Notes: generated by a model not told the origin, from the letters alone. A DNA stretch of 64,000 nt from Botryllus schlosseri (GCA_051294905.1 CM119371.1:21206001-21270000), one strand, 5' to 3'; positions 1,357 through 62,523 are shown, counted from the stretch's first letter. Translations and numbers: made by a program.

Positions 1357-4300
1357 GGCTACAATTAATTGCAGTTCCATCCACATGCCGCGATTTTATC
1401 AATTGAAATCGACTGTCTACCAAATGATCAGTACTTTAAAATTCGATATTGTTTTTCTCGAAACGAGTACGTCCAGCAATCAAGTTTATCGGAATATAGA
1501 AGGTTCCCTGTTCAAACGAATCGAATAAATTCAGAGTTTGTGCCACCCAGAATCTCGTGATGCATCAATATCTGACAATGGCATGGCATACTGCACGTTA
1601 AAAACGAAAATAATGATAAGGATGAGCTCAGTAATTCTTATACTTATTGTTAATATGACTGTTAATTTATTGACGCATCAACAAATACATGGTAAGTAAT
1701 TAACTGCCCATTTTAATCCCAAAAGCTAGTTTCCATCATTTCTCTGGTAGTGCGTTTCGATCATGAGCACAATTCATAGTGCTCGAGTTCTATGTTGTTA
1801 TTACGCCATTGTCTACCGATTGTTAGAACAATGGCTTCACTGCTGTTAGATTGGAATCTTTGAGCTTTGCTGCGGATGAAATCACCTAATTGGCCGGATG
1901 CAGCCCTTGAGCCGTTTGTTTGACAACACTGATCTATATTGTTACAACATTGACTGCTATCTGTATTCTTAGAAGAGACTTAACATTTTTATAACAATAC
2001 CTATTGGGTTTTATGGAGTATTGCGACCGCGAAAAAGTCGGTAATCGGTCGGTACAGGGGCGATGTTGTTATCACTAGAATAATCGAAACGTACCTAGAG
2101 TCAAGTCCGGTCGGCGAAGTATTGTAGGCTAGCAAATTACCCGTCTTGTTGGTTGAAGACATCTCTCTTCTACTTTGGAAAGAGCATGGGGTGTATATAC
2201 CAATTATACCAGCTGGTGCCTCACTTGCATTGAATCCGAGTAGACATCCACTCTGAAACACTGCGTGCGTACCATTAGAATCCTTTCACTGCGTTTAACA
2301 AGAACTGAGAAGACTAAAGCTAAGATTTTGCCTACAGGACGCAAGATTTGGATCTATTCATAATATGGGTTCTAAACAAATGGTGGCTTCAACTATTCCC
2401 TCAAATTAAGCCAGAATTGCGCTTCGGGGATCCCTCCGCCACAAAACATTTCTAGATTTGCTTTTCCGATAAGGGCATGGGGAGTAGCCTAATTGCGCTT
2501 TAAAACGATCGATTTATGAATAATTTTGGTCAATTCGTCATCGACTATTCTGTTCCAAAGCAACAAAATTGGTGTTCAGAGCAGATAGGTATAAATGTGT
2601 GTAAGCCATGATTTCGCATTTATCATCACACAGAACGCATCACTACCTCTGAGCCAATACAAATTTTCACTGCGATTCAAGTCATTCTGATGTTCCGGTT
2701 TTCCAGTCAAGTCACTAGCATAGGGACACAAATTTTAAGTGACTCCAGTCAAGTCAAGCCATCCGTATTATTCCTATTTAGAAATACATATTAATTGAAT
2801 AGTATATCGAAATAAATCCGGATATTTTCAACTGAAACTCGTCAGGGGGGGGGTAATCGTCAGCAACACGTTGATAATGAAAATGACATTCTATATCCAG
2901 GGTGTCGAACATACAGCCCGCGGGCCATCTCTTGCCGGCCAAACGATTTCATCCGGTCCACGAAGACCTTTTTAAGTAAAGTAAGATAATTGTTACATGC
3001 TTATATCTTTCAGAAAACATGTTACAAACATTTGGGATTTTTTAAAGGACATAATTTTAATAAATATTCCCTCAAGAGCAAGACAGCAAATGCCGAGCAT
3101 GTCAATAGGAGGTCACATTATTACCACCCGACTGCGGGGTTGTGGTTTTACCGCAGTTACCTTTAAGAACAAGCCCGTGACATTATGACACTCAATTACG
3201 AGAGGGCACGCACTGTTTTCAGTTGGAAATCGGCGTATATATCCAAAACACGCTCTAACGAGTTATGAGGTCCATGTCTCTTTTGTTTTTCATTGCATTT
3301 TTGAAAATCTTTAGATAAATGTGTACCAGTTCCACTGCGAATAGAGATCTACACACAATAATTATATTTATGTTGATTGCTAATAACTCATCACCGTGTT
3401 GATAAAATGGTGCAGTTTTATGCTCAGATGGCTTGAGGGTTAATATTACTAGTCTTGTTTTACATGACCCTGGAGCATGCTCCACCCGATCACAAATATT
3501 CCGCTGAAATTTCGCCAGGATGACTACAGGTTATATCGTCGTTTGCGCCACTGTCTCAACTGTTGATATAGGCATTCAACCAGCCAATTATCGTATTTTT
3601 GCCAATTCCATTGTTTGAAAATAAAGGTGTTGCTACTTGATAGAATGAAGCCCCTATTATACGTGATGCTATTTAATACACTGATATATGCTTGATAATA
3701 TACTGTTCATACATTTAAAAAACTTCTGTTTAAATTTTGCAAAAACGTGGTTATATTATGTCGTGTGCGTCAAAACATTTGGCCTGCCATGAAAAATCAT
3801 CTCGTGGGTCACAAATGTCCTTCCTTGAAAGATTGTTTCCATCACACCACAGCCCAGTCGTTTGTTACAATCATTAGGAAGAAATTGGGCGTAATTAGTA
3901 AATCAGGACACGGCGATGGAATGGATGCAGGATTTACAACGTTGTGTCCAACGAAATAAGACTGCCGACATATTTATGTCAGAGAAAGTCGGCGAACGGG
4001 GTGACGATTGAAATCTGGCACTCAGATTCGGAGTATTCGGAAGAGCCGGTAAATCAGACGGTCGACAATGTTGCGAATTCGCACGATTTGGAAGGATTGC
4101 GTATAACGTTTCGTTAGGCACGCCGAAGGAATCATCCTTGTACGTTGGAAATCCAGTATTACAAGGTATATCCACGGTTGAAACTATGTGTTATCATTGA
4201 TGATGATTTCGCTTGTAGTGTTTTGATGTGCCCGAAATAACTGGTGCTACTCCATCAACTACAAATGATATGTATAATGTCTAACTGCTCGATTATTGTA

Positions 4301-4789
4301 GGACTAATCGAATTATCCAGCCTCATTGATAGCAAATAGTGCTCGTGTCTGAAATAATGGAATTCGCTAGGTATATAATTGAATTTAGATCCAACGACTC
4401 GTTTGCAACTTATACTGAAAGGTTGTCAAAGTAGTCGTTGAAGCCACAACTTCAATGTGAATATATGCGGGTTTTGTTTCTGCAATCATAAAACTTGGCT
4501 GATGTCGAATTCATGAACTAAATTTTGTTGTATTGGTCGCGGCAACTTCTCTGTACGTTGGTAAAGTAACTTTGTCACGCAAGCTATTATTAGATATACC
4601 TGAATATGGAATCAACACAGAATTTTACCTTTCAAGTAGCGATGACGGGGGCATAAGATATAGCAGAAGGATTTCGTGGTTAATCGAAGATGGCATCCTA
4701 AATATACCCCGGACGGAGATAGCCGCCAAGTTTGCGGTCAATTCTTTGCTGAAGCAACCGGAGTAGTAGATATAGGCCGATTATAGCCA

Positions 4790-4868
4790 CCAATGAGATT
4801 ACGCCACGTGTCCAGCCACGCCCACTTTCAAATTTAAATTTTCCCGCGTATTGTTTTTATTTTCCCGC
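4790..4868. promoter_or_regulatory. Terminal cluster of transcription-factor-like motifs (mirrored at the right end)
   Basis: CCAAT 4790-4794, CACGTG 4805-4810, CCACGCCC 4816-4823, TTCAAA (CHR reverse) 4827-4832, E2F-type TTTCCCGC at 4840-4847 and 4861-4868. Confidence 0.4.
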
Positions 4869-4949
4869 GTTTTTTTTTTATTTTAATTTTGGATTATGAG
4901 AACGGTTACTCGCCGACAGTTGAACCGAGGACCTCACGACTCACATATG

Positions 4950-5152
4950 AAAACACGCCTTCTCCTGGAATCGAACCGAGAACCTCATGCCTTATATACC
5001 GCAACTGTAACCATTACACTACCGCGCTCGCTGAGAATATGCGTATGTATTGAACCTTTAACCCCGAATGAAAACGGCTCCTCTCCCTGATCCGAACCGA
5101 GGACCTTATGACTTGTAGAACAGAACCGTAACCATTACACTATCGCGCTCGC
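4950..5152 (-). ncRNA. Left-arm mirror of the two tRNA-like Pol III units (5152-5071 and 5031-4950)
   Basis: Reverse complement of 22120-22322. Confidence 0.55.
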
Positions 5153-5585
5153 TGACAATCTCCTTTAGTATTGAAGCTTTTAAAAAAAGGTTGTCTAATA
5201 AGGCACAAGCATTGAAAACACATTTGTTATTTGTGCGACAATCACCATATATTTTTCGGGATATCCACATGATAATGGTCCCTATTGACCTCAGAAAAGG
5301 ATTCAGGTCCATTTTCCGGCCTCAAGAAAGCTACCATTAAATTAGAGATGACTACCGTACGCTTCCGAGCCCGCGCTCTCAATTGTAAGGCTAGGCGACG
5401 AGTGTACCAGTACCATTACAGACGTACAACGAACGATCAATGTAAGTGGATCTGTAAATCATGAGCAATAATAAGCGACGAGTGTGCCATCAACATTATA
5501 GACGTACAAACGAGCATATTCAACTAGCATTGATGCTTTATCGATTTAGCGCGGTATGTGTAGCTGGATGCTAACCAATTCGCAT

Positions 5586-6017
5586 TTAACAATGCGACCC
5601 GCGCACAATTATGTAGCCCGATTTTCGTTGAATATTGACGACCCCAATAAATCGAATGAGCTCTTTTCCGCAGACATCTATGACACAGCTGTCAGTCCAG
5701 TGGACACGAACTTGAGATTCCGTGGGGTTAAATTCCGCATCAAATAAGATCAGAGCGCCTTTTCTCGCTTTCAGGATTTGGACTGATGCGTCCGGCCAAT
5801 GTCGCAACACTACAATATGTGGTAACACGAACCTGTGCTCACGTACAGTTGTTATTTGTAGTGTCATCGTCGCCCGCCAATGCGATAAACTCCCAACGGC
5901 TGACACATTGGTCTTCAATCTAATACCAGCATATTTTTTGTAGGTCGAGAACAAGGGTAATTTAATTGCAACTAAAATGCCTGCGGCTTGTTTTGGCTCA
6001 AGGGTCGAATGCAACAT
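5586..6017 (-). CDS. Intronless 143-aa hypothetical protein near the element end (possible degenerate dUTPase-like fold)
   Basis: ATG-started ORF in a GC-richer subterminal zone with a beta-rich composition; identical protein in the other arm. Confidence 0.45.
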   Translation of the reverse strand: MLHSTLEPKQAAGILVAIKLPLFSTYKKYAGIRLKTNVSAVGSLSHWRATMTLQITTVREHRFVLPHIVVLRHWPDASVQILKARKGALILFDAEFNPTESQVRVHWTDSCVIDVCGKELIRFIGVVNIQRKSGYIIVRGSHC

Positions 6018-7890
6018 ATGAATCCATTCGCGTTACGCACTATAGCCTATTTAGGATGATGAGCCAAAACGCGTAGGCGAGGACATGGAGATAATAACTA
6101 GCCTATATATTTAGAACAAATCAAGCATTGATTTCACGATAACGTATTCGTTATAACGTCATAAAAATTTAGCGAGTTTTATAAGCTGCTTATCCTCAAT
6201 AACCAATTTGCGGAAATTAGTGAAGAAGTGGATTGTACAGATTCTTAGAACTGCACGACAATCTGGTTATAGATTTGCTGATGCTACCTGCTGCCAGCAT
6301 CATAACCAAGCAACCTTTACCTACCCGTCAGCTAATGTCTTACTATGTAAAACATGCATTCTGCACGTTCTTCCGTGTAGACGAACGTAATTTACCGATG
6401 TCCTAAATATTCAATTAATTCGGTTACTTTGTGTGGCAGCTCATAATTTGAAATCAGCAACGACTTCATTACATTACAAGTCTTACAGTTTTCGTTACTT
6501 CTTGCTCGTTTCTTTACTGCAAAAAGCGTTTATATTCAACTCGTCGCATTTTAGATTGCTTCGAGTCGTGGCGGTAGTTATGAATAAGTTAATATTGTGC
6601 CTACTGCCCAGTGCACCTATAGATGCGGAATCTACTTAACACGCGCATGGATCGCTTATTTCAAATAAATCGCATAAAGTAATAAACGTGCTGGAGTTGT
6701 CAATCTAAAATCACATTCATGACACGAAATGAGTCATCGCCATTTTGAATTTATGATATGTTTATAAACTACATTTGAAAATGCGTGGGCCCCGAAGTCA
6801 GGTTATTGCAACAGCTATAAAAAAAAGTAACATAGTGAGTTTAATTAGGTCGATAAAATATTATATATTTTTCGATTACATTTCATCCATATCTACAAAT
6901 ATATCTTGATGCTATCGTGAGCCACTAAAATGTTCTCCGCATGCGATCCGCTAACCGTAGTTTGCTCATCCCTGGTTTTAATCGTAATCTTTCGAGTAAG
7001 TTCTGTTGGTAGGCAAGCCCTACCAGAATATATTTTGATAAAGGCAAGAGTAAATCGTTATCGAGCACCTTTCGTTATCAACTTCTTCAGTAACTCAAAA
7101 TCGGTGACCGATCGCGACCTCTCGGAATAAATGAACAACTGGCAATATGAACAGGACATGAAGCTACGATGTCCGATAATTCTTTTCAATTAAAGTAGAA
7201 GTATAGCCATTTCCGACCGAGTAAAACGTTACTCGGCATTGCGCTCTCGATAGTAGTGAGAAATGATATTCGTTTACTTTCGATAATATCCAACATACGG
7301 ACTCATGTCGAGGGCAATTTTTAGAACTCTAATATCGCATAGCCTAACTTTGCAATATTTTTCGATTTATTTAGTCATGTTTTCCTTGCGATAGCCATTC
7401 AGCATCGCGAAAATTCATAGTACAATTTAGAATAAACTGCTAACTTTATCAAGGTCTTTGAAAAGTACTTTTCAACATTTAACTATCATAACATAGTAAA
7501 CTTCTACTCAAGTACGAGAAGTAGCGATTGTAAGGTGATTAGAAAATAAGTATTACGGGCCCAGTTTTGTCTAAAACCTAAATCGCAACACGTTATCTGA
7601 TCCATTCCGAATGACGAGATTAAATATCCCTGAAAAATGAATAATATTCATAATATTCACATTGCTATACATAAAATTTGCTCTGACATTGCCCATAGTG
7701 ACCATTTAGAATTGGATAGTAAAGGAGTCGAAATTTCTTCGATGCGCCTAGTGCACTAATTCGAGTGCTGAAATCCGAATCGAAAAATTTGTTATAATGA
7801 TTCGAGTCGAGTAGTAAAATTTAATTAGCGAGCACTGAAATTACAGTAATATAGTTATCACCGATACGAAATTTGGTAGCCATTTCCCCG

Positions 7891-8320
7891 GAATAGTAAT
7901 CAGTCCGAAACATTATGATAAATAGATAAGGTTGAAGAAATATAAAAATATCATCAATGGTGTATGTATTATGAAACTGGAAATATTGTATTTGCGGTAG
8001 CACGCAATTGGTTTCCAATTCGTAATTTCAACCGCATCGGCAGTTTTTTCATAAAAATAACTAAACAAATACTTTGATACTAATTTCAAAATAACGCAAA
8101 TCTCTTAATGAATGTCCCTTGAATAGTAATCAATCCAAAACATTATCATGCAAGGTCCGAGAAACATAAAAATATCATTAATGTGGTATGCATTGTGAAA
8201 CAGGCAATATTTTCTTTGCGGTGACCAGGGAATACGTTCTAATTCGTAATTTCAACCCCATCATCATTCTCTCATAATAATGAATTAGCAAATCCTTGGA
8301 TCCTAATTTTCAAAGTAGCT
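7891..8320. repeat. Diverged tandem duplication (~230-bp unit) just upstream of the Bcl-2 ORF
   Basis: GAATAGTAATCA..CC.AAACATTAT at 7891 and 8121; both units share AAAATATCAT, TTTGCGGT and AATTCGTAATTTCAACC blocks. Confidence 0.75.
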
Positions 8321-8362
8321 TAGATATCTGAATGAGCTCTGACTCGCTGTTATCTTCACACC

Positions 8363-9277
8363 ATGGAATTATTACGAGTATCACCATCGCTCACTGAAGA
8401 AAGGGATGAAATTTTATCCGGGGCATATTCCTTGGCCAGGAATTTTATCATGTACGAACTAGACGGGCCGAGCGTTAAAGCAAATACGAAAGCGGAGGCA
8501 ACCTTACGGCGAGTTAGTGATGAAATGTTCGAGCGACATCGAACTGTCGTAAACGCAATCTCTAAACGTCTCCGATACAGTATTGTTGAAGTCGACGAAA
8601 AATATGAAGAATATTCTGCGGAAGAGCGGATGTTCCTGATGATAGCTGACGAAATTTTTAAAGATACCCAAGAGAATTGGGGTCGGATCGTATCTGTGTT
8701 CGTGCTCGGTAGCATTCTTGCTCGCAAAAACGAGGATGAGCATCACGGTGATAATATAGAAGGTATCATACAGTCAGTCGGGAATTACATTGGTAGTAGA
8801 AGGCGAAAGTGGATAGCGGAAAATGGAGGATGGGTAAGCGATTTTACATGGCCTGATAAGGATTTGGCAATTATCATTTAGCTTGAGGTACTGTGTATCT
8901 GCTCTCGAGAGTCCATACCACCTATCGATAATGAAACTTAGCTTGCACTTCACAATTCGGTTTTCAATTTACATTTTGTCATAAGGCACAGTACTTTACA
9001 TTCCAAGCGCTGCGAACTTTGAATTACCTAGCAAGTACGGTAACTTTCCTCTGCAAGATTAGGAAGGCTTACATTCTTTTGTTTGTTTCAGGACAGTTTT
9101 GTAGGATTTTTTGATAACGCAGCTTTCGATGATAGTAAAGTTTGGAAGAGGCTCATGCTTGTTGGAATTGGACTGACGTCTATTGCAATGGCAATAACAA
9201 GATCATGGATAGTCCTTTGCCGTACATCATGTAATGTTTTTTTAAATAATATATTTCTTCACCGTTTAATTACATAA
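8363..9277 (+). CDS. Bcl-2 family protein, Mcl-1/A1-like, intact copy; 2 exons (8363-8833, 9092-9277), 218 aa
   Basis: BH3-like EATLRRVSDEM, BH1 ENWGRIVSVFVLG, BH2 WIAENGGW|DSFVGFF split by a phase-0 GT-AG intron at the typical Bcl-2 position, and a C-terminal hydrophobic anchor LMLVGIGLTSIAMAI. Confidence 0.93.
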
Positions 9278-9461
9278 ATTTTACTGTAGGACGGATGCAG
9301 TTTCTTCTGAGATTACATTAAAGATTGCTCCATAAAACCGTCTTTATCTGGAACATTTTCATTTTTCAAATTTATACAGCTACGTAAGGAAATTGCTAGG
9401 TTACCTAGAAAACGCCGCAGGTCAAATTTGATCCAATTCCGACCATAGTAGCGACAAGGAG

Positions 9462-12181
9462 TTATGACAGCTCAAAATGATCCATCTTTCGAAGCCAAAT
9501 ATCGTTGGTTCTCCACGACCAAATATCGTGTTCTATAAATATTGTGTATATGGAACAGATATAAATGTTGCTATTTTGTTGTTATTTGCGAAGAATACTT
9601 TGCTCAGTAATTAATTTCACGGGGATTCTAAACCTCAATACATACAAGTGAGCAAAGTTACATTAACCTGCGTTAACCTGTAGTGTTATGTAACTACCTA
9701 CAATTCTATCAAGACGTAGCGAACACGACAAGTAATATGGAGTGAAGGAATAAGGGCGCGAAATTCCAATGTATAGATGCATATTTAGGCGGAAATATCG
9801 TCTTACCGGACGAATGCAATTGTTTCCTTAAAGTTTTCCTGTCTACGCCATTCAAGCGCGGTAAGATCAGTTTGAGTTGGCGACATTCAGGATGATATTT
9901 CAAGAAGCTCTGAATGATAGTCACATATTTCTCGTCGATTCTTGTTCTATCGCTGTCACTGAGGTCGAATACCTTTAGCTGTTCATTGAATAATTGAATA
10001 TTAGGAGGTTTAGGTCAATTTCATAAACGAAATCTGAACTAAATTGCTTTATTGAGAACCATGAGAGAGCAGAAAGAACTTACTGTAGTGCATCGCTTGC
10101 CCATCTCTTCACTAAGATTCCTGATTTGCATGGAAAGCATCTTGCAATTACTCAGGTTGAATTCTTCAACGCGGGTTTTGTGCAGGATTTCAGTTACTGT
10201 TTTGTAGCAGGAGGAAATGTCGGGATTTCTACTCAAATCCAGCGAATGCAACTAAAACACAGTGTGATGTTCAGATATTTTACGACGCTACAAACCACTC
10301 AGTTGCTGTAATAATAATATTTATCGACGACAGAGCAATATTATCAATTTCTCCGCCTCATCGCAAAACTGGTGTAATACAGAAAATAATGAACGTCTAT
10401 AGGATATCGAAGAAACGGCGGAAACTAGCATTAATATGAATGAGCGATGGAAAATCTTTCACTCATAAGCAAGGACACTTTCATCAGCAGACGTGATCAG
10501 GAATGCCTTATTGATGATAAATTCGCTCGCTAAATGCAATGCCATGCCTGACGTTGCTTGGAACTCGCATTAGTTGCAAACTATGCTTGATTATTTCACT
10601 AGTAAGAAAACAAAACAGATCTAGCTAAAATGGATCACCTCATGATTACCGAGACCATTGTTCAACGACGTTAATGAATGTTCATCCAATTCGCAAGCTG
10701 AAAGTCGAACTGCCTTCGTGTTATGCCTTTTCGCGAAACGTCCGATTTCTTGCAATCCTACCGGTTCCAAATCCGTATTGTAACTTAGATCGAGTTTATC
10801 AACCTACAAAATACAGCAAATTATTCTGAAAACGACACACAAAATTGCGGAAACGAGTGGCTACCTCGATTTCACCAAAACATTCAAAAGCATGAATTTC
10901 CTCCGGTGTGAGGTCGCATCCTTTCATCACAAGAGTAACCGCTCTGTCTTTACAAAATAAGGGCGGCAGTGCAGCCATACACTCTTCATCCAGACGATTA
11001 TAACTGATGTCGAGATATTGGAGCTAAACGAATATGGGAAACTGACAACCTACGACCAGAATTAATCGGGGATGAAGACAAACATTACAAACTTATAACA
11101 GAGAAATGTTGATTAGCCAGTCACGTCATAATAGATTGGCGAAATGTTCTGAGATTAAAATAGAATTTCTGTGATTCGTCTCAAATGGACTCTTTGCAAG
11201 CAGTCATAAAGAATGTGACTATTGACTACTACTGAACAACAATCACTCAAGACAAGATCCATATACCTTACTGTTTTTGACCTGCATGGCGACGAAATCC
11301 TTAGACTGCAAGTGCGAGTTCACAAGTGACAATTAGGTTAGATCGCTTGAAATAATAGTCCCGAGTTGCGTAAAGTTGATGTTTTCTCCGTAGCTGAGAT
11401 CGAGTTTTTGCAATTTAACCTATGGGAATGAGGTAATAAAAGTCTCATATCGAAAGGATTTATACTAGATTAGTGTCCGGATATTTTCATCGCCAATACC
11501 TGATGCTGTCTGATAAGTTGACTCAAAACGATCAGAAAATCGTTAGATCCGCTACTTTCTTCCAGGTTAAGTTCCGTCGAGCCACACTTCTTCATCAACT
11601 CGCAGATGGCTGGCAGGAGTTTGTCAATGCCATCGTGGGCTGTGACGCTGACTTTTTTTATTTGGACCTGGACGAGTGCAAAACTTTCCCCCATAAAACA
11701 GTAATTGAGGTGATGAATAATTAAACCCTCATCAACTCTCACTAGTCTAGTATGACTATTGCGATAAATGGCTACACCGGTGCGCGATTGAGCATTGTTC
11801 GGTACGATACCTTCAATTCACGCGTAGTAACAATATTAATATGAAACAATGCGGTCATGATGAAGGTTTTTTTTAAAGCCCGCTATGTATATTATACGGA
11901 TAAACATGCTTAAATTGAACGTGGGTTTATAATGCTCAGTGACTGTGAGCGGTATGTGTAAATGTGTTTACCTCAAATTCAAATTCGCGAATTTGGTCCA
12001 ATATCATCTTTACAAGGTTTTCATTGAGATGGCATTGGCGGAATTCTAACTCGTACATGCGAGATTTCTCCATGAGACCATTCACGATATTCTTTACATC
12101 CAATTCAGTCGTAGTTTTATGATAGATCCCACAAGGAATTTCAACTTCATCATGATCCATAAGTATTGATTGATGGTACAT
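9462..12181 (-). pseudogene. Mirror copy of the LRR gene with a premature stop
   Basis: Exons mirror the right-arm gene (12181-11972, 11667-11500, 11419-11267, 11023-10865, 10803-10639, 10251-10084, 9978-9807, 9532-9462). Codon TAT at 14738-14740 is TAA at 11335-11333. Confidence 0.8.
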
Positions 12182-13891
12182 CCTGTTATCACCTTTAGCA
12201 TATGTGAATCATAAATAATTCATGATCAGGAAATAAAATTAATATTAATTCTAATCAACCTCCTATGTGATTTTTGTGTCGGACTATTTCAATATTTCGA
12301 TAAGTCGGATAAAATGATGATACGTGACATATATACTCAAGCAAGAAACCGCTCCAGTACCAACACCACCGCGTATGCCAATAACATATGACTGAATCAT
12401 GGTAGTTTGCAGAGTTTAGTCAGCCATTGTACAGTTTATGCGCTATGAGAATATCGAGTTAATCCAATTACACCATCATAAAATTTATTCAAGAGTCAAA
12501 ATTATATTATTTTTCAGTATTGTATGGCCGAAATTATTAGAAATAAACATCCAAAAAGTTTAAGCTTCGGTTTTTACTTTATGAGGATAATTTTATATAC
12601 TTTATTATAGTCATGGTAGGGTGCTTGTAATAACGAAGGTGTTTTTAACAACAAGCTATCAATAACTTCACAAATGACACAAGCTAATTGATAAATTTTG
12701 AAATTGCCTGTAAGATATTGAGCTAATTATCAGAGTCGACGGCGATAGAACTATTTTACTTGAGTAATATTTATCGCTACATAAATATCGTTATGCCTTT
12801 GATACGATGTAAATAGTTATCTCGTGCGGCGTCCGTTGCGTGTCGTCACCCTTCGTACACCGTCGAGGAATAAGCTACCCGGTGCCGTTGACTTGTGATT
12901 ATTTGTCGTAGACTTAAGTTGTGATATTGCAAATTTTGAGGTTCTAAGATGGGTCCGTTCGGGTAAAAAGGAGCCCACGAATGCAATAAAGAGACAATTC
13001 TGAGGATGCCGCCCGCCCCTATTTAATCCCTTTTATTGCCCCGAACCCCGAGCGGGGCGGGCGGCATCCTCAGAATTGTCTCTTTATTGCATTCGTGGGC
13101 TCCTTTTTACCCGAACGGACCCATCTTAGAACCTCAAAATTTGCAATATCACAACTTAAGTCTACGACAAATAATCACAAGTCAACGGCACCGGGTAGCT
13201 TATTCCTCGACGGTGTACGAAGGGTGACGACACGCAACGGACGCCGCACGAGATAACTATTTACATCGTATCAAAGGCATAACGATATTTATGTAGCGAT
13301 AAATATTACTCAAGTAAAATAGTTTTATCGCCGTCGACTCTGATAATTAGCTCAATATCTTACAGGCAATTTCAAAATTTATCAATTAGCTTGTGTCATT
13401 TGTGAAGTTATTGATAGCTTGTTGTTAAAAACACCTTCGTTATTACAAGCACCCTACCATGACTATAATAAAGTATATAAAATTATCCTCATAAAGTAAA
13501 AACCGAAGCTTAAACTTTTTGGATGTTTATTTCTAATAATTTCGGCCATACAATACTGAAAAATAATATAATTTTGACTCTTGAATAAATTTTATGATGG
13601 TGTAATTGGATTAACTCGATATTCTCATAGCGCATAAACTGTACAATGGCTGACTAAACTCTGCAAACTACCATGATTCAGTCATATGTTATTGGCATAC
13701 GTGGTGGTGTTGGTACTGGAGCGGTTTCTTGCTTGAGTATATATGTCACGTATCATCATTTTATCCGACTTATCGAAATATTGAAATAGTCCGACACAAA
13801 AATCACATAGGAGGTTGATTAGAATTAATATTAATTTTATTTCCTGATCATGAATTATTTATGATTCACATATGCTAAAGGTGATAACAGG

Positions 13892-16611
13892 ATGTACCAT
13901 CAATCAATACTTATGGATCATGATGAAGTTGAAATTCCTTGTGGGATCTATCATAAAACTACGACTGAATTGGATGTAAAGAATATCGTGAATGGTCTCA
14001 TGGAGAAATCTCGCATGTACGAGTTAGAATTCCGCCAATGCCATCTCAATGAAAACCTTGTAAAGATGATATTGGACCAAATTCGCGAATTTGAATTTGA
14101 GGTAAACACATTTACACATACCGCTCACAGTCACTGAGCATTATAAACCCACGTTCAATTTAAGCATGTTTATCCGTATAATATACATAGCGGGCTTTAA
14201 AAAAAACCTTCATCATGACCGCATTGTTTCATATTAATATTGTTACTACGCGTGAATTGAAGGTATCGTACCGAACAATGCTCAATCGCGCACCGGTGTA
14301 GCCATTTATCGCAATAGTCATACTAGACTAGTGAGAGTTGATGAGGGTTTAATTATTCATCACCTCAATTACTGTTTTATGGGGGAAAGTTTTGCACTCG
14401 TCCAGGTCCAAATAAAAAAAGTCAGCGTCACAGCCCACGATGGCATTGACAAACTCCTGCCAGCCATCTGCGAGTTGATGAAGAAGTGTGGCTCGACGGA
14501 ACTTAACCTGGAAGAAAGTAGCGGATCTAACGATTTTCTGATCGTTTTGAGTCAACTTATCAGACAGCATCAGGTATTGGCGATGAAAATATCCGGACAC
14601 TAATCTAGTATAAATCCTTTCGATATGAGACTTTTATTACCTCATTCCCATAGGTTAAATTGCAAAAACTCGATCTCAGCTACGGAGAAAACATCAACTT
14701 TACGCAACTCGGGACTATTATTTCAAGCGATCTAACCTATTTGTCACTTGTGAACTCGCACTTGCAGTCTAAGGATTTCGTCGCCATGCAGGTCAAAAAC
14801 AGTAAGGTATATGGATCTTGTCTTGAGTGATTGTTGTTCAGTAGTAGTCAATAGTCACATTCTTTATGACTGCTTGCAAAGAGTCCATTTGAGACGAATC
14901 ACAGAAATTCTATTTTAATCTCAGAACATTTCGCCAATCTATTATGACGTGACTGGCTAATCAACATTTCTCTGTTATAAGTTTGTAATGTTTGTCTTCA
15001 TCCCCGATTAATTCTGGTCGTAGGTTGTCAGTTTCCCATATTCGTTTAGCTCCAATATCTCGACATCAGTTATAATCGTCTGGATGAAGAGTGTATGGCT
15101 GCACTGCCGCCCTTATTTTGTAAAGACAGAGCGGTTACTCTTGTGATGAAAGGATGCGACCTCACACCGGAGGAAATTCATGCTTTTGAATGTTTTGGTG
15201 AAATCGAGGTAGCCACTCGTTTCCGCAATTTTGTGTGTCGTTTTCAGAATAATTTGCTGTATTTTGTAGGTTGATAAACTCGATCTAAGTTACAATACGG
15301 ATTTGGAACCGGTAGGATTGCAAGAAATCGGACGTTTCGCGAAAAGGCATAACACGAAGGCAGTTCGACTTTCAGCTTGCGAATTGGATGAACATTCATT
15401 AACGTCGTTGAACAATGGTCTCGGTAATCATGAGGTGATCCATTTTAGCTAGATCTGTTTTGTTTTCTTACTAGTGAAATAATCAAGCATAGTTTGCAAC
15501 TAATGCGAGTTCCAAGCAACGTCAGGCATGGCATTGCATTTAGCGAGCGAATTTATCATCAATAAGGCATTCCTGATCACGTCTGCTGATGAAAGTGTCC
15601 TTGCTTATGAGTGAAAGATTTTCCATCGCTCATTCATATCAATGCTAGTTTCCGCCGTTTCTTCGATATCCTATAGACGTTCATTATTTTCTGTATTACA
15701 CCAGTTTTGCGATGAGGCGGAGAAATTGATAATATTGCTCTGTCGTCGATAAATATTATTATTACAGCAACTGAGTGGTTTGTAGCGTCGTAAAATATCT
15801 GAACATCACACTGTGTTTTAGCTGCATTCGCTGGATTTGAGTAGAAATCCCGACATTTCCTCCTGCTACAAAACAGTAACTGAAATCCTGCACAAAACCC
15901 GCGTTGAAGAATTCAACCTGAGTAATTGCAAGATGCTTTCCATGCAAATCAGGAATCTTAGTGAAGAGATGGGCAAGCGATGCACTACAGTAAGTTCTTT
16001 CTGCTCTCTCATGGTTCTCAATAAAGCAATTTAGTTCAGATTTCGTTTATGAAATTGACCTAAACCTCCTAATATTCAATTATTCAATGAACAGCTAAAG
16101 GTATTCGACCTCAGTGACAGCGATAGAACAAGAATCGACGAGAAATATGTGACTATCATTCAGAGCTTCTTGAAATATCATCCTGAATGTCGCCAACTCA
16201 AACTGATCTTACCGCGCTTGAATGGCGTAGACAGGAAAACTTTAAGGAAACAATTGCATTCGTCCGGTAAGACGATATTTCCGCCTAAATATGCATCTAT
16301 ACATTGGAATTTCGCGCCCTTATTCCTTCACTCCACATTACTTGTCGTGTTCGCTACGTCTTGATAGAATTGTAGGTAGTTACATAACACTACAGGTTAA
16401 CGCAGGTTAATGTAACTTTGCTCACTTGTATGTATTGAGGTTTAGAATCCCCGTGAAATTAATTACTGAGCAAAGTATTCTTCGCAAATAACAACAAAAT
16501 AGCAACATTTATATCTGTTCCATATACACAATATTTATAGAACACGATATTTGGTCGTGGAGAACCAACGATATTTGGCTTCGAAAGATGGATCATTTTG
16601 AGCTGTCATAA
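13892..16611 (+). CDS. Ribonuclease-inhibitor/NLR-type leucine-rich-repeat protein, open copy, about 421 aa
   Basis: GT-AG exons 13892-14101, 14406-14573, 14654-14806, 15050-15208, 15270-15434, 15822-15989, 16095-16266 and a tentative last exon 16541-16611. The internal exons are phase 0, 153-168 nt, and most start with an LRR motif (VKLQKLDLSYG, LQYLDISYNRL, VDKLDLSYN, LHSLDLSRN, LKVFDLSDS). The true start codon is uncertain. Confidence 0.82.
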
Positions 16612-17319
16612 CTCCTTGTCGCTACTATGGTCGGAATTGGATCAAATTTGACCTGCGGCGTTTTCTAGGTAACCTAGCAATTTCCTTACGTAGCTGTATA
16701 AATTTGAAAAATGAAAATGTTCCAGATAAAGACGGTTTTATGGAGCAATCTTTAATGTAATCTCAGAAGAAACTGCATCCGTCCTACAGTAAAATTTATG
16801 TAATTAAACGGTGAAGAAATATATTATTTAAAAAAACATTACATGATGTACGGCAAAGGACTATCCATGATCTTGTTATTGCCATTGCAATAGACGTCAG
16901 TCCAATTCCAACAAGCATGAGCCTCTTCCAAACTTTACTATCATCGAAAGCTGCGTTATCAAAAAATCCTACAAAACTGTCCTGAAACAAACAAAAGAAT
17001 GTAAGCCTTCCTAATCTTGCAGAGGAAAGTTACCGTACTTGCTAGGTAATTCAAAGTTCGCAGCGCTTGGAATGTAAAGTACTGTGCCTTATGACAAAAT
17101 GTAAATTGAAAACCGAATTGTGAAGTGCAAGCTAAGTTTCATTATCGATAGGTGGTATGGACTCTCGAGAGCAGATACACAGTACCTCAAGCTAAATGAT
17201 AATTGCCAAATCCTTATCAGGCCATGTAAAATCGCTTACCCATCCTCCATTTTCCGCTATCCACTTTCGCCTTCTACTACCAATGTAATTCCCGACTGAC
17301 TGTATGATACCTTCTATAT

Positions 17320-18510
17320 CAGGGGTGGGCAAACTTTTGAGCTCGCGGGCCGCATTCAACATCTGAATCCATTTGCGGGCCGCACTATATAAAATTGGGA
17401 TCATAAACCCAATTGCAATATTGGTATTTGAGGACAGGGAGATAATATATGTGCCAAACATTATTGCTTTTGATGATATCGTATACGCGTCAGTAACATA
17501 GTGGCGAGATTGTATAGGCTGGTCGACCTCAATAACCAATTTGTCAAAACTTTCGAGATGAAAGTCGGTTGTCCCGATTCTTAGAACAGGATTTAAATTT
17601 AAATCTGTGAGCACTGAGCAGCGATCTGTTCATAGATTTACTAATTCGATCCAATTTTGGTTCAGTTCCAGGACACACAATACTGACAGCATCGTAACCA
17701 TGTTAGCTTCAAACACGCTTCTACTATGTGTAGATAAAATATGAATACCCCAATTCTACGCATACAGAAAACGAATCGTACTAATTTGTACTAATCGTTT
17801 TTTATAAGCATATCACTTAAATAATTAAAACTGGAGTGCTGGCCAATATGAAATCACACTCGTGAATCGAATTATGTCAATCTCGTATAGGATTTCTGTG
17901 ATGTTTAGCAGTTGGAACCTTTCAAACTTCGTGGGCCTTGAAATCGGGCTGTCGCTGCTGCCCCAGAAATTAAACATAAAAATATCATAGGAAGTATTTA
18001 ACCTTAGAACAGTGGTTCTCAAACTTCTTAAGACACGCCCCCCTTACGATGGTGAAAGTTTGGCACCCCCCTTATCGTCATATCACAAAACGCAACCAGG
18101 ATGCTAGCAAACCTAACGGATAGTTTGATGGCATGGAAGGTTACGACCGTGGATGAGAGATTTTTAAAAATGAAATTCAGACTATATACAGAGCAATAAC
18201 CAAGAATTGTATGTAAATCGCGCGGAGCGCGAATTTTTTTTAGTTGAGCTCAGCTTCGCACCCCCTTCAGATGCTTTCACGCCACCAAGGGGGGGGGGTG
18301 CCTCCCCCCAGTTTGAGAACCACTGCCTTAGAATTATCATGGTGAAATATATTAAGAAAAAGTTTAATAAAGTCCCTGCATTATTTCGATTTTAAGTAGG
18401 CCTACGCATTTTATCAATATTTAAAAAAAAATTCATTAAACTCTCGCGGGCCGCACAGAACGGTGTTGCGGGCCGCATGCGGCCCGCGGGCCGTAGTTTG
18501 CCCACCCCTG
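17320..18510. mobile_element. Non-autonomous hAT element inserted in the Bcl-2 exon
   Basis: 16-bp TIR CAGGGGTGGGCAAACT; perfect 8-bp TSD TTCTATAT (17312-17319 and 18511-18518); empty site present in the left arm (8754-8761). Confidence 0.95.
18010..18325. mobile_element. hAT MITE nested in the previous element
   Basis: TIR CAGTGGTTCTCAAACT; perfect TSD CCTTAGAA (18002-18009 and 18326-18333). Confidence 0.93.
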
Positions 18511-21254
18511 TTCTATATTATCACCGTGATGCTCATCCTCGTTTTTGCGAGCAAGAATGCTACCGAGCACGAACACAGATACGATCCGACCCCAATTCTC
18601 TTGGGTATCTTTAAAAATTTCGTCAGCTATCATCAGGAACATCCGCTCTTCCGCAGAATATTCTTCATATTTTTCGTCGACTTCAACAATACTGTATCGG
18701 AGACGTTTAGAGATTGCGTTTACGACAGTTCGATGTCGCTCGAACATTTCATCACTAACTCGCCGTAAGGTTGCCTCCGCTTTCGTATTTGCTTTAACGC
18801 TCGGCCCGTCTAGTTCGTACATGATAAAATTCCTGGCCAAGGAATATGCCCCGGATAAAATTTCATCCCTTTCTTCAGTGAGCGATGGTGATACTCGTAA
18901 TAATTCCATGGTGTGAAGATAACAGCGAGTCAGAGCTCATTCAGATATCTAAGCTACTTTGAAAATTAGGATCCAAGGATTTGCTAATTCATTATTATGA
19001 GAGAATGATGATGGGGTTGAAATTACGAATTAGAACGTATTCCCTGGTCACCGCAAAGAAAATATTGCCTGTTTCACAATGCATACCACATTAATGATAT
19101 TTTTATGTTTCTCGGACCTTGCATGATAATGTTTTGGATTAATTACTATTCAAGGGACATTCATTAAGAGATTTGCGTTATTTTGAAATTAGTATCAAAG
19201 TATTTGTTTAGTTATTTTTATGAAAAAACTGCCGATGCGGTTGAAATTACGAATTGGAAACCAATTGCGTGCTACCGCAAATACAATATTTCCAGTTTCA
19301 TAATACATACACCATTGATGATATTTTTATATTTCTTCAACCTTATCTATTTATCATAATGTTTCGGACTGATTACTATTCCGGGGAAATGGCTACCAAA
19401 TTTCGTATCGGTGATAACTATATTACTGTAATTTCAGTGCTCGCTAATTAAATTTTACTACTCGACTCGAATCATTATAACAAATTTTTCGATTCGGATT
19501 TCAGCACTCGAATTAGTGCACTAGGCGCATCGAAGAAATTTCGACTCCTTTACTATCCAATTCTAAATGGTCACTATGGGCAATGTCAGAGCAAATTTTA
19601 TGTATAGCAATGTGAATATTATGAATATTATTCATTTTTCAGGGATATTTAATCTCGTCATTCGGAATGGATCAGATAACGTGTTGCGATTTAGGTTTTA
19701 GACAAAACTGGGCCCGTAATACTTATTTTCTAATCACCTTACAATCGCTACTTCTCGTACTTGAGTAGAAGTTTACTATGTTATGATAGTTAAATGTTGA
19801 AAAGTACTTTTCAAAGACCTTGATAAAGTTAGCAGTTTATTCTAAATTGTACTATGAATTTTCGCGATGCTGAATGGCTATCGCAAGGAAAACATGACTA
19901 AATAAATCGAAAAATATTGCAAAGTTAGGCTATGCGATATTAGAGTTCTAAAAATTGCCCTCGACATGAGTCCGTATGTTGGATATTATCGAAAGTAAAC
20001 GAATATCATTTCTCACTACTATCGAGAGCGCAATGCCGAGTAACGTTTTACTCGGTCGGAAATGGCTATACTTCTACTTTAATTGAAAGGAATTATCGGA
20101 CATCGTAGCTTCATGTCCTGTTCATATTGCCAGTTGTTCATTTATTCCGAGAGGTCGCGATCGGTCACCGATTTTGAGTTACTGAAGAAGTTGATAACGA
20201 AAGGTGCTCGATAACGATTTACTCTTGCCTTTATCAAAATATATTCTGGTAGGGCTTGCCTACCAACAGAACTTACTCGAAAGATTACGATTAAAACCAG
20301 GGATGAGCAAACTACGGTTAGCGGATCGCATGCGGAGAACATTTTAGTGGCTCACGATAGCATCAAGATATATTTGTAGATATGGATGAAATGTAATCGA
20401 AAAATATATAATATTTTATCGACCTAATTAAACTCACTATGTTACTTTTTTTTATAGCTGTTGCAATAACCTGACTTCGGGGCCCACGCATTTTCAAATG
20501 TAGTTTATAAACATATCATAAATTCAAAATGGCGATGACTCATTTCGTGTCATGAATGTGATTTTAGATTGACAACTCCAGCACGTTTATTACTTTATGC
20601 GATTTATTTGAAATAAGCGATCCATGCGCGTGTTAAGTAGATTCCGCATCTATAGGTGCACTGGGCAGTAGGCACAATATTAACTTATTCATAACTACCG
20701 CCACGACTCGAAGCAATCTAAAATGCGACGAGTTGAATATAAACGCTTTTTGCAGTAAAGAAACGAGCAAGAAGTAACGAAAACTGTAAGACTTGTAATG
20801 TAATGAAGTCGTTGCTGATTTCAAATTATGAGCTGCCACACAAAGTAACCGAATTAATTGAATATTTAGGACATCGGTAAATTACGTTCGTCTACACGGA
20901 AGAACGTGCAGAATGCATGTTTTACATAGTAAGACATTAGCTGACGGGTAGGTAAAGGTTGCTTGGTTATGATGCTGGCAGCAGGTAGCATCAGCAAATC
21001 TATAACCAGATTGTCGTGCAGTTCTAAGAATCTGTACAATCCACTTCTTCACTAATTTCCGCAAATTGGTTATTGAGGATAAGCAGCTTATAAAACTCGC
21101 TAAATTTTTATGACGTTATAACGAATACGTTATCGTGAAATCAATGCTTGATTTGTTCTAAATATATAGGCTAGTTATTATCTCCATGTCCTCGCCTACG
21201 CGTTTTGGCTCATCATCCTAAATAGGCTATAGTGCGTAACGCGAATGGATTCAT

Positions 21255-21686
21255 ATGTTGCATTCGACCCTTGAGCCAAAACAAGCCGCAGGCATTTTAG
21301 TTGCAATTAAATTACCCTTGTTCTCGACCTACAAAAAATATGCTGGTATTAGATTGAAGACCAATGTGTCAGCCGTTGGGAGTTTATCGCATTGGCGGGC
21401 GACGATGACACTACAAATAACAACTGTACGTGAGCACAGGTTCGTGTTACCACATATTGTAGTGTTGCGACATTGGCCGGACGCATCAGTCCAAATCCTG
21501 AAAGCGAGAAAAGGCGCTCTGATCTTATTTGATGCGGAATTTAACCCCACGGAATCTCAAGTTCGTGTCCACTGGACTGACAGCTGTGTCATAGATGTCT
21601 GCGGAAAAGAGCTCATTCGATTTATTGGGGTCGTCAATATTCAACGAAAATCGGGCTACATAATTGTGCGCGGGTCGCATTGTTAA
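21255..21686 (+). CDS. Mirror copy of the 143-aa hypothetical protein
   Basis: Translation identical to 5586-6017. Confidence 0.45.
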   Translation: MLHSTLEPKQAAGILVAIKLPLFSTYKKYAGIRLKTNVSAVGSLSHWRATMTLQITTVREHRFVLPHIVVLRHWPDASVQILKARKGALILFDAEFNPTESQVRVHWTDSCVIDVCGKELIRFIGVVNIQRKSGYIIVRGSHC

Positions 21687-22119
21687 ATGCGAATTGGTTA
21701 GCATCCAGCTACACATACCGCGCTAAATCGATAAAGCATCAATGCTAGTTGAATATGCTCGTTTGTACGTCTATAATGTTGATGGCACACTCGTCGCTTA
21801 TTATTGCTCATGATTTACAGATCCACTTACATTGATCGTTCGTTGTACGTCTGTAATGGTACTGGTACACTCGTCGCCTAGCCTTACAATTGAGAGCGCG
21901 GGCTCGGAAGCGTACGGTAGTCATCTCTAATTTAATGGTAGCTTTCTTGAGGCCGGAAAATGGACCTGAATCCTTTTCTGAGGTCAATAGGGACCATTAT
22001 CATGTGGATATCCCGAAAAATATATGGTGATTGTCGCACAAATAACAAATGTGTTTTCAATGCTTGTGCCTTATTAGACAACCTTTTTTTAAAAGCTTCA
22101 ATACTAAAGGAGATTGTCA

Positions 22120-22201
22120 GCGAGCGCGATAGTGTAATGGTTACGGTTCTGTTCTACAAGTCATAAGGTCCTCGGTTCGGATCAGGGAGAGGAGCCGTTT
22201 T
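22120..22201 (+). ncRNA. Second, more diverged tRNA-like Pol III unit
   Basis: A box TAGTGTAATGG 22130-22140, B-like GGTTCGGATCA 22174-22184, TTTT 22198-22201. Lies 121 bp from the next unit. Confidence 0.5.
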
Positions 22202-22240
22202 CATTCGGGGTTAAAGGTTCAATACATACGCATATTCTCA

Positions 22241-22322
22241 GCGAGCGCGGTAGTGTAATGGTTACAGTTGCGGTATATAAGGCATGAGGTTCTCGGTTCG
22301 ATTCCAGGAGAAGGCGTGTTTT
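22241..22322 (+). ncRNA. tRNA-like Pol III unit (A box, B box, T4 terminator)
   Basis: A box TAGTGTAATGG 22251-22261, B box GGTTCGATTCC 22295-22305 (44-nt offset, as in tRNA genes), TTTT 22319-22322. No proper acceptor stem. Confidence 0.6.
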
Positions 22323-23111
22323 CATATGTGAGTCGTGAGGTCCTCGGTTCAACTGTCGGCGAGTAACCGTTCTCATAATCCACTGATATTCGAGACAAAA
22401 AATAAAAAAAGAAATACGTCAATTCTCGGCGAGAATCCGTTCTCATAATCCATTAAAAATCGAGCAAAATTAAAATAAAAAAAAAACGCGGGAAAATAAA
22501 AACAATACGCGGGAAAATTTAAATTTGAAAGTGGGCGTGGCTGGACACGTGGCGTAATCTCATTGGTGGCTATAATCGGCCTATATCTACTACTAACCGG
22601 GAACTTTCAATATTGTGATTAACCTCGCTCGCTGCAAAGGAGGAAAACTTCAAGAACTCAAAAATTGGGATATCCTGGCGAAATATTCTTTTGATGTTCC
22701 CGTACTGCAGCGAAGCGGGTGTAGAGAGATTTATGGTCAATATATAGGCGTTTTATTTTGCTACAGACTATACGGATTAGTTGACTTTTACAGTTACTTT
22801 TCACTGTCCATATCTATTCCATTTAGATTAATTGACGTTAAATAATTTTCATTGAGCGTTGATATACCATCAGTATACTCTTTAATGCACTAATACAATT
22901 CGGTAACATTTATCAACTGAATATCCTACTGTTTCAAAACCAACTCGCTTCTATTGAACCCCTATTTACCATTATTGAGTAGCATACATTACAGCCCGAC
23001 ACAAGCACAAATGTAAGGCCGAAAATACTGTACCGCATGAGGGCTCTCACACATGAAGCAGAACTTAAAAAAGTCATGCTCGCTATCCTCGTTGGTCGGA
23101 ACTATGTACAT

Positions 23112-61500: not shown

Positions 61501-62523
61501 ATTTTAGCAGGACTTTTGTCACGTCAGATGGCTTTAATATTACCAACTCACATGGAAGAGTCCTGGGAAGGTTAGCTTGTTTAAGAACATTAACGCAACA
61601 AGACTGTCTGGCGAAACGAGACTGCAGCTCAGAAATAGCCGGACTGTTTATTGTGTCACAATGCTCAACTCGATCACAATGCAAAAATCTTAGTTGAATT
61701 TGGGGGTTCCAGATGCATGAGCAGAATACAATTTATATTTTAGTAATCAGTACAGCGGCAGATTTCCATTGATACCCGTTTTATCAAATTTAGCGCTCGG
61801 CAAGCCGGTTAAAAATGGCCGTAAAATTGCCTTTGGACAAATGGAAAGTGTGACGTAAACCAAATGCAGTTAGCCGTTCAATCTCGCTGTGCCCACACCA
61901 TTTAGGACACCATGCTTTCTCCCCTAATGGGTGGGCTTGGCCCATAGAGTAAAAAACCTGCCCTTCACACTTGTAATGCGGTCCTGTTAACACAACACCA
62001 TGAAAGAAATACACTATTGGCAGATTGTGTTATTTTTGGCATATGCCAAAAATTAGTTATTTTTGGCATTTTCAAATTTTTATTTTTGGCAGTTTTGGCA
62101 TCTGGCTCCCGAAATGCCAAAAATAACACGGCCTGTGTATAAGCCATCTTTCCTTCAACTTACAGCGCCGCAACGTCCTACAAGTTTCCCGATGTAAATA
62201 TACGGGATCTGGAAGTACGGTAGAAACAGTATATTGCTTGGAGTTCCAATTGATCGAATTTCCTTATATCCAAATTATAATACGACACAACAGTAGCACG
62301 AATAAGATATTGTCCCAATAAGATCGGTATAGATACAGTGGGGGAACGTCCGGTGGGCCAATTACTATTGATACAAACAGTATCTTAATCACAGCTATAT
62401 CCAGAATCTTCCCTTAGACCAGACCAGGATGTTTCATAAAGCATACGTCATCTAGCGAATACAAGTATATGGCTCCTAAATTATTAAATCCCCTAAGATT
62501 AACATGAAATGCCCACAGTAGCA
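58600..62523 (-). mobile_element. Decayed, internally deleted BEL/Pao LTR retrotransposon
   Basis: Minus-strand fragments FSDAC..YG and LIMSKSRAAPLKQVSIPRMEMTAAVL (Pao RNase H region), and DGLTRKARI / RTIHKFVVLL (C-terminus). Direct repeats at about 58640-59010 and 62148-62523 start TGTTAC/TGCTAC on the minus strand. A G-tract PPT abuts 59010. The left limit is approximate. Confidence 0.8.
60794..62135 (-). mobile_element. Deleted hAT transposon with transposase C-terminal remnant, inserted in the retrotransposon LTR
   Basis: TIR CAGGCCGTGTTATTTTTGGCAT; perfect TSD TGTATAAG; minus-strand FCGGLATFFPSTATVEADISQIRWTK*..LSLEALLQCKQ resembles the hAT dimerisation region. Confidence 0.88.

Follow-up and report, generated by a model that had tools for sequence, protein, structure and literature searches.

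The stretch of Botryllus schlosseri DNA analysed here (64,000 nucleotides (nt), GCA_051294905.1 CM119371.1:21206001-21270000; hereafter the window) contains an inverted duplication of 17.8 kb at positions 4762-22594, which has ends of the Polinton/Maverick type, carries a Bcl-2 gene in each arm and has none of the Polinton core genes. The repeat finder delimited a left arm (4762-13019, 8258 nt) and a right arm (13054-22594, 9541 nt when two arm-specific insertions are counted), which are 100% complementary in three blocks of 4266, 3872 and 130 nt and are separated by an asymmetric central spacer of 34 nt (13020-13053). The unit starts with the letters AGTAGTAG and stops with CTACTACT, and at each end it adjoins the hexamer AACCGG (4756-4761 on the left, 22595-22600 on the right). 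Such a direct repeat at both sharp ends has a chance of 1 in 4096, and we read it as a 6-bp target-site duplication (TSD). The left junction is gaagcAACCGG/AGTAGTAGATATAGG and the right junction is CCTATATCTACTACT/AACCGGgaacttt, where the slash marks the boundary; a contig from a DNA run, possibly the sample behind the assembly itself, bridges the left junction (4300-4791). Both junction sequences confirm the sharp ends and the bracketing AACCGG reported in the initial annotation. The unit had there also been called all-palindromic, which holds for the fully complementary arms, although the mirror is broken in three places, by the 34-nt spacer, by an insert of 1191 nt and by ~82 extra bases.

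The last two interruptions are both confined to the right arm. The ~82 bases (22383-22464) are a gain of repeat unit in the subterminal region. The 1191-nt insert (17320-18510) has short terminal inverted repeats, CAGGGGTGGGCAAAC, and the same 8-bp TSD, TTCTATAT, on both sides, as found in non-autonomous, hAT-like miniature inverted-repeat transposable elements (MITEs); the superfamily name is our assumption from the length of the TSD. This MITE family is large, with 6266 first-look candidates genome-wide and full-length relatives at 81-92%.

Each arm begins with a terminal module (4762-5285 in the left arm) that is common to autonomous Polintons. From the end inwards it consists of (AGT)2, a hypervariable stretch of 10 nt, ~70 conserved nt (GATTATAG..CCAATGAG..CACGTG..GCCACGCCCAC..TTTAAAT) and subterminal repeats with units of 21 bp and 121 bp. 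These small arrays make up the tandem repeats of the arm, the remainder of which is unique and gene-bearing. Two 121-bp units (4947-5180; mirror at 22092-22325), also seen in autonomous elements, contain by eye tRNA-like boxes (GGTTCGA...); tRNA (ARAGORN) and Rfam searches of the arm, and of these repeats in particular, gave no call.

The Bcl-2 gene of the left arm lies on the plus strand and has two exons. Exon 1 (8363-8833, 157 codons) starts in the context ACCATGG (8360-8366), encodes the BH1 motif NWGR and the BH2 motif GGW, and is followed by a GTAAGC donor at 8834. Exon 2 (9092-9277), preceded by an acceptor (...tttcag) that ends at 9091, encodes the rest of BH2, a hydrophobic tail and the stop; in the window it has one extra T and a longer tail. 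The intron between them is 258 nt long, of GT-AG type, with a pyrimidine tract and a CAG acceptor. Mirroring of these coordinates places the right-arm gene on the minus strand, with exon 2 at 16796-16981 and exon 1 at 17240-18909, where the MITE cuts the exon in two (18511-18909 and 17240-17319) and the listed match covers residues 1-143 only. The encoded protein scored 77.1 bits with PF00452 (Pfam cut-off 31.4). Its PDB relatives shown were pro-survival proteins in 60 of 60 cases, Bcl2L10, A1, Bcl-2, Mcl-1 and Bcl-xL among them, and the NWGR and GGW motifs align with theirs. A large protein collection held no homologue of the Bcl-2 exon, and Bcl-2 was not found in viral contigs.

A second, multi-exon gene lies on the minus strand of the left arm (9709-12208) and, by mirroring, on the plus strand of the right arm (13865-16364). 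Its open reading frames (ORFs) include exons of ~55 aa that resemble RI-type leucine-rich repeats (LRRs), showing by eye an LxxLDLSxN-type pattern and giving sub-threshold matches to LRR_1 and LRR_6; six of nine copies keep these exons open. No homologue of an LRR-like exon was found in the large protein collection. Going by pattern and domain scores, the LRR label is reasonable but unproven. As for transcripts, contigs from a putative RNA run cover introns and spacers alike and contain no splice joint, and two raw-read RNA runs under other organism labels gave 0 reads.

The initial annotation had named both cargo genes and had assigned them to the host. Its Bcl-2 gene is well founded in view of the Pfam score. 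From its LRR gene a multi-exon gene with an LRR-like pattern remains, but with Pfam scores below threshold only. An origin from the host is plausible from the GT-AG intron of Bcl-2, and the presence of introns suggests that the cargo genes may once have come from host genomic DNA; on the other side, homologues of Bcl2 and of IAP have already been reported as accessory genes of adintoviruses (PMC8502044).

The assembly used for genome-wide comparison comprises 495 Mb in 219 contigs, with the window on contig 1; part of the candidates was scored, and the genome-wide counts are therefore lower bounds. A search with the first 299 bp of the element, as had been proposed in the initial annotation together with a look for palindromic copies with other TSDs, gave at least 59 matches (40 of 72 candidates scored), mostly arranged as inverted pairs 15-20 kb apart. 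Eight of ten fetched terminal pairs proved to be near-complete palindromes with arm identities of 98.6-99.9%, and the other two have inverted repeats of ~330-430 bp and a unique interior. The window shares the whole 8.3-kb arm, at 96-98% identity, with eight other palindromic copies on other chromosomes. The TSDs vary by copy: a perfect 6-bp TSD was found in 10 of 12 pairs (AACCGG, TACATG, CTCGTG, AAAGCA, TACTCT, AATAGA, AAGGCC, AATGTG, AAGATC and CCCCTG), and in the remaining two 5 of 6 bases agree, the sequence being specific to its site throughout. These 12 pairs take in a 55-kb pair on contig 10 and two autonomous copies, both described below. AGTAGT stands at every aligned terminus, with the number of AGT units unequal (one extra) between the ends in two pairs. 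The terminal pattern had 48 matches in the genome versus 0 in the control, and the conserved terminal 33-mer, with up to 3 mismatches, had 65 versus 0; the 33-mer was not found in viral contigs or metagenome contigs. The length of 13 palindromic elements was 16,842 +/- 1,531 bp, with a range of 14.9-20.1 kb.

The central spacer is informative about how these copies arose. It was found unchanged in a copy on contig 4, with one change on contig 8, flipped and with two changes on contig 6, and retained beside a one-sided deletion on contig 5. Because the same 34 nt recur in four other copies, the comparison points to a single origin of the palindrome, which then transposed as a whole to many chromosomal sites.

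The ends and size of the unit are those of Polintons. Intact vertebrate Mavericks are described with (AGT)2//(ACT)2 ends, perfect 6-bp TSDs and a length of 16,862 +/- 1,678 bp (PMC8097293), and the window element has the 6-bp TSD, the (AGT)2//(ACT)2 motif and a length within ~15-20 kb, which upholds the Polinton/Maverick-like assignment in the initial annotation. Its statement that the viral core genes are missing also proved correct, as the 64-kb window contains no ORF of 220 aa or more, and tblastx of the arm against autonomous elements gave nothing substantial outside the termini. The window element has no gene for a polymerase, for an rve integrase or for the capsid-morphogenesis module (packaging ATPase, protease, major and minor capsid proteins).

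Autonomous Polintons with related ends, which the same annotation had recommended looking for, do exist in this genome. Two elements of autonomous type, with short terminal inverted repeats (TIRs), lie on contig 11; they are 18-20 kb long and, indels aside, 99.5% identical. At 85% identity, the arm of the palindrome aligns with the left end of the autonomous element (L039) over 524 nt, versus 424 nt, the extent of its TIR, at the right end. Because of this difference in length, the palindrome appears to be a doubling of the same left end. The contig 11 element encodes an rve integrase core (47.8 bits) with a chromodomain (34.5 bits), a Pox_A32-type ATPase (27.7 bits against a cut-off of 22.8) and, in the right accessory region, a BIR/IAP gene (68.7 bits; L040:7951-8565, plus strand). 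In the genome as a whole, profile matches to PF00665 are dominated by retrotransposon integrases.

The candidate polymerase is an ORF of 1244 aa (P0001; L040:2194-5928, minus strand) that resembles PF03175 clusters in Atlas (at 0.97) and has 676 relatives at E<=1e-30. Among 20 relatives drawn from the 150 best and chosen for full-length, single-stretch alignments, PF03175 scored above its cut-off in 6 and below it in 1. The ORF itself had no match in Pfam, whole or in pieces, in PDB (phmmer) or in phages (tblastn), and by eye it contains what we take to be polymerase-type motifs. Its residues ~800-900 look, again by eye, like an inserted Vsr-type endonuclease, and a homologue, P0004, has a weak Vsr match (20.5 bits, cut-off 27). 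A 155-aa ORF has a weak match to the adenovirus protease (E 0.04), and the adjoining ORF of 426 aa, a capsid candidate, resembles Atlas clusters in which 15-24% of the members bear a double-jelly-roll-like domain; its single-sequence fold had a predicted local distance difference test (pLDDT) value of 30.6. The order of integrase, small ORFs, 426-aa ORF and protease candidate parallels the published module that runs from integrase to protease (PMC8097293). By gene content, the contig 11 elements are autonomous-type Polintons that encode a protein-primed polymerase (pPolB), an rve integrase and an A32 ATPase, and they are candidate helpers for the palindromes.

Because the window element lacks the core genes that related autonomous elements possess, it is a non-autonomous derivative and not a Polinton in the strict sense. 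On this evidence we hold it very probable that the 17.8-kb unit belongs to a family of non-autonomous snap-back derivatives of Polintons/Mavericks.

The Bcl-2 exon occurs at no fewer than 150 places in the genome (150 of 425 candidates scored), with 75-100% protein identity. Among these listed matches, 112 of 150 make up 56 inward-facing pairs (plus, then minus), compared with 4 outward and 1 same-strand neighbour pair, and the inner distances of the pairs fall into discrete classes from 3.0 to ~14 kb. A distant pair at 28.03 Mb on contig 1 (76% protein identity) is likewise a palindrome, with arms of >7.6 kb that are 99.8% identical, and it shares with the window arm the Bcl-2 region only. 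The exons sampled were colinear, without indel or stop, in 21 of 21 cases, and for open copies the ratio of nonsynonymous to synonymous substitution rates (dN/dS) had a median of 0.29 (range 0.14-0.74; 190 pairs with dS>0.05, dS up to 0.5). Judged by these ratios, purifying selection has kept the Bcl-2 exon open even between palindrome lineages that are deeply diverged.

To follow the two arms of each copy, the 18 arms of nine copies were aligned with MAFFT and a tree was built from 5461 ungapped columns. The two arms were sisters in all nine copies, with support 1.0, and they differ by 0.05-0.6% versus 1.3-4.3% between copies. Dozens of private substitutions per copy sit on both arms, which requires copying from arm to arm, and the tree shows that the arms of every copy evolve in concert. 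Copies diverge most in the outer 500 bp (9.5%, versus 1.4-4.2% in the other 500-bp windows measured). Within each of the 9 copies, the two ends share a single hypervariable 10-mer behind AGTAGT, although it differs between close relatives; the ~70 nt behind it are nearly invariant, the autonomous elements included.

The same pattern could result if intrachromosomal gene conversion alone keeps the arms identical after insertion, with the palindrome as a passenger structure that has no role in replication, and to this we give somewhat less than an even chance. Private substitutions on both arms are what in-place conversion is expected to produce. Large arm-specific indels persist, as they should where conversion tracts are unable to cross big heterologies, and in 4 of 9 copies the arm differences concentrate in the outer ~400 nt, as if conversion faded towards the arm ends. 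However, the inward-facing Bcl-2 layout recurs in several spacing classes and in lineages with dS up to 0.5, which indicates that it is transmitted or regenerated through transposition, and the sharing of the variable 10-mer by both ends fits end-to-end copying during replication. The explanation concerns the maintenance of the arms alone and does not conflict with the remainder of the snap-back Polinton reading. For the interior of the arms, we regard equalisation in a hairpin and chromosomal gene conversion as about evenly matched, and for the termini we favour copying coupled to replication.

It is unlikely, in our judgement, that the amplification was driven by the host, that is, that a host gene family, the Bcl-2/LRR cassette, spread by means of Polinton ends and is kept by host selection. 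Purifying selection on a mostly intact Bcl-2 exon would fit such a family, as would the host-like introns in both cargo genes. Adintoviruses with Bcl2 and IAP genes (PMC8502044) and the anti-apoptotic BIR gene in the autonomous element speak for the mobile element instead. So do the copies, which are dispersed in their hundreds, look polymorphic, have TSDs of their own and contain MITEs in coding exons, and the free loss of one gene copy per pair, as seen in the window.

Drosophila Foldback (FB) elements have very long terminal inverted repeats, with arms made of short tandem repeats, and are mostly without a transposase of their own. The window element shares with them the very long inverted repeats, a foldback hallmark, and the lack of an own transposase, and it encodes no Polinton protein itself. 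That it is a foldback-type or other cut-and-paste transposon, whose AG...CT ends would be a coincidence, is nonetheless very improbable, since the terminal 424-524 nt are homologous to the ends of elements that encode pPolB, rve integrase and A32 ATPase. Moreover, the arms consist of unique sequence with genes in place of short-repeat arrays, and both the (AGT)2 motif and the 6-bp length of the TSD are those of published Maverick ends (PMC8097293). An assembly artefact, in which a fold-back chimeric read or a mis-resolved graph created a false palindrome at an ordinary Polinton site, has a negligible probability: arms of 100% identity around a tiny spacer are the pattern of such chimeras, and the read-run evidence consists of contigs, with no listed piece spanning the whole stretch, but nine loci on eight contigs have the same architecture with a conserved spacer, the two arms are told apart by a MITE that has an 8-bp TSD and by further indels confined to one arm, the flanking sequence is unique on either side and includes the TSD, and 56 inward-facing Bcl-2 pairs are spread over the genome.

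For the snap-back Polinton derivative we propose the following origin and life cycle. Each arm consists of a left-end module of ~520 bp from a Polinton and ~7.7 kb of accessory DNA with the Bcl-2 and LRR-like genes, mirrored around the 34-nt spacer. The palindrome may have arisen when displacement synthesis of a left-end fragment switched strands in a snap-back, whereby a fragment with a single terminus would gain two good ends and nearly the length of a virus genome; the arm fits 524 nt of the left end versus the 424-nt TIR at the right end, and a single conserved turn-around of 34 nt was found. Replication would proceed from the ends by the protein-primed polymerase of the helper, with the ~85 conserved terminal bases as origin and the AGT repeat permitting jump-back initiation, a mode that has been discussed for the repeated end motif of Mavericks (PMC8097293). 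Insertion would be performed by the helper's integrase, for which the same ~85 bases would be the site. A displaced single strand could fold into a full hairpin, and mismatch correction there, or else conversion in the chromosome, would keep arms and termini alike. The Bcl-2 product, like the IAP of the helper, might delay the death of the cell in which the element replicates. We infer helper dependence and snap-back origin from this set of features, and likewise mobilisation in trans, packaging and expression of the element. Helper and palindrome would carry two different classes of apoptosis inhibitor, BIR/IAP and Bcl-2.

Several observations weigh against this interpretation. Nothing found points directly to trans-mobilisation, an extrachromosomal form, packaging or transcription, and the assembly contains no empty site, the left flank being unique there. 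Copies of the helper lineage number two, with ends only 85% identical to those of the window element over ~520 bp, and both are interrupted: one contains a MITE, and in the other the right terminus is damaged and the polymerase frame shortened. A stop is present in 14 of the 150 listed Bcl-2 matches, and the copies used for dN/dS were taken from matches listed as open. The three LRR-like exons score below the Pfam cut-offs (LRR_1 18.5 versus 20.6 bits; LRR_6 ~13 versus 23.4), and the within-family dN/dS of the LRR-like exons, 0.32 with 6 of 9 copies usable, is not discriminating versus the 0.28-1.35 of control ORFs, antisense ones included. Arms that are 100% identical while one of them contains a 1.2-kb MITE require either a very recent insertion or a homogenisation that skips large heterologies. 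The arm differences from the MAFFT alignment are slightly inflated, with 5 counted for the window arms that are identical by the repeat finder.

Some further observations concern single loci. A unit of 28.7 kb on contig 9 (G000:C9:13231902-13260562) has the same termini and four Bcl-2 copies in the order +,-,+,-, which suggests a doubled palindrome, or dimer, without full internal ends. At the contig 10 locus (G000:C10:4929843-4985111) matching termini lie 55 kb apart with the perfect TSD AATGTG, and 3.4 kb inwards from either terminus there is a Bcl-2 copy; the locus is either a giant form of the element or one enlarged by nested insertions. Another member of the MITE family (G000:C11:7787210-7788407) sits within an autonomous Polinton copy and explains one indel between the two autonomous copies. 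At the insertion site in the window, removal by eye of the element and one TSD copy leaves an open frame of 86 + 81 codons across the junction (4503-4761, 22600-22842), and the element may have landed in a coding exon; Pfam gave no match for either half of this frame, and the flanking sequence occurs once in the genome. Sequencing runs under seven organism labels contain 37-66% of the sampled 31-mers of the arm, which corresponds to relatives ~1-3% diverged, like the paralogues in this genome. This would mean that the labelled species are very closely related or that the family passes from one to another. The window also contains, outside the element, an inverted repeat of 269 nt (49733-50001 and 61648-61916), whose arms are 75% complementary, lie 11.6 kb apart and may mark the ends of a different and older element.

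Snap-back defective genomes are known from linear DNA viruses with protein-primed replication, for example from incomplete adenovirus particles, where one end of the genome is present in long inverted repetition. The palindromes resemble them in that both arms represent the same left end, in their near full-genome length and in the presumed need of a helper for all proteins. In contrast to a dead-end by-product of one infection, the present family is integrated, with many germ-line copies, diversified lineages and selected genes of its own. Large chromosomal palindromes, for example those of sex chromosomes, undergo gene conversion between their arms, and the arm identity of 99.4-100% found here, while copies diverge by 1.3-4.3%, is similar; these units, however, are mobile and 15-20 kb long, with transposon ends, TSDs and a spacer of just 34 nt. 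The closest known systems are the Polintons/Mavericks themselves (polintoviruses, adintoviruses), with which the window element shares the (AGT)2//(ACT)2 ends, the 6-bp TSD, the size of ~17 kb, a homologous terminal module and anti-apoptotic accessory genes (PMC8097293, PMC8502044). It differs from them in that it has no core genes and in that its inverted repeat is the whole element, with >8 kb per arm, whereas the Maverick inverted repeats published span 46-1,447 bp (PMC8097293). Its cargo genes have introns, whereas the core genes of Mavericks are described as intronless (PMC8097293).

Non-autonomous Polintons and anti-apoptotic accessory genes are both already known ideas. A description of Polinton derivatives that are palindromic over the whole element, or of a family or superfamily of them without any core gene, with concerted evolution and with selected cargo, was not found in the literature on Polintons and Bcl-2, on long TIRs, or on non-autonomous and snap-back/foldback forms, a search whose scope excluded Repbase and most subscription journals.

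Polintons/Mavericks are regarded as viruses with a second existence as transposons, and their life cycle has hardly been observed. A population of elements without core genes that keeps ~520 bp of Polinton end reveals what replication and integration may need in cis, namely ~85 conserved terminal bases and an AGT repeat. The genome-length size of the palindromes suggests a packaging constraint and hence the existence of virions. The selected Bcl-2 gene and the IAP gene of the helper suggest that controlling the death of the host cell is central to what these elements require. A further, rather doubtful possibility is that the palindromes are a second, helper-dependent genome component of Polinton viruses, and not debris. 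Each lineage would then be a satellite or accessory segment, a mirror molecule of capsid length that has the replication and integration ends of the helper, supplies an anti-death Bcl-2 and possibly an immune-interfering LRR protein, is kept by selection and is equalised in every cycle through a full-length hairpin intermediate of replication. If this were true, Polintons would be a system in which satellite or defective-interfering partners, perhaps even bipartite genomes, have become fixed in a germ line. With arms of 8 kb that evolve in concert around a spacer of 34 nt, the family may also serve as a compact natural system for the survival of palindromes in animal chromosomes.

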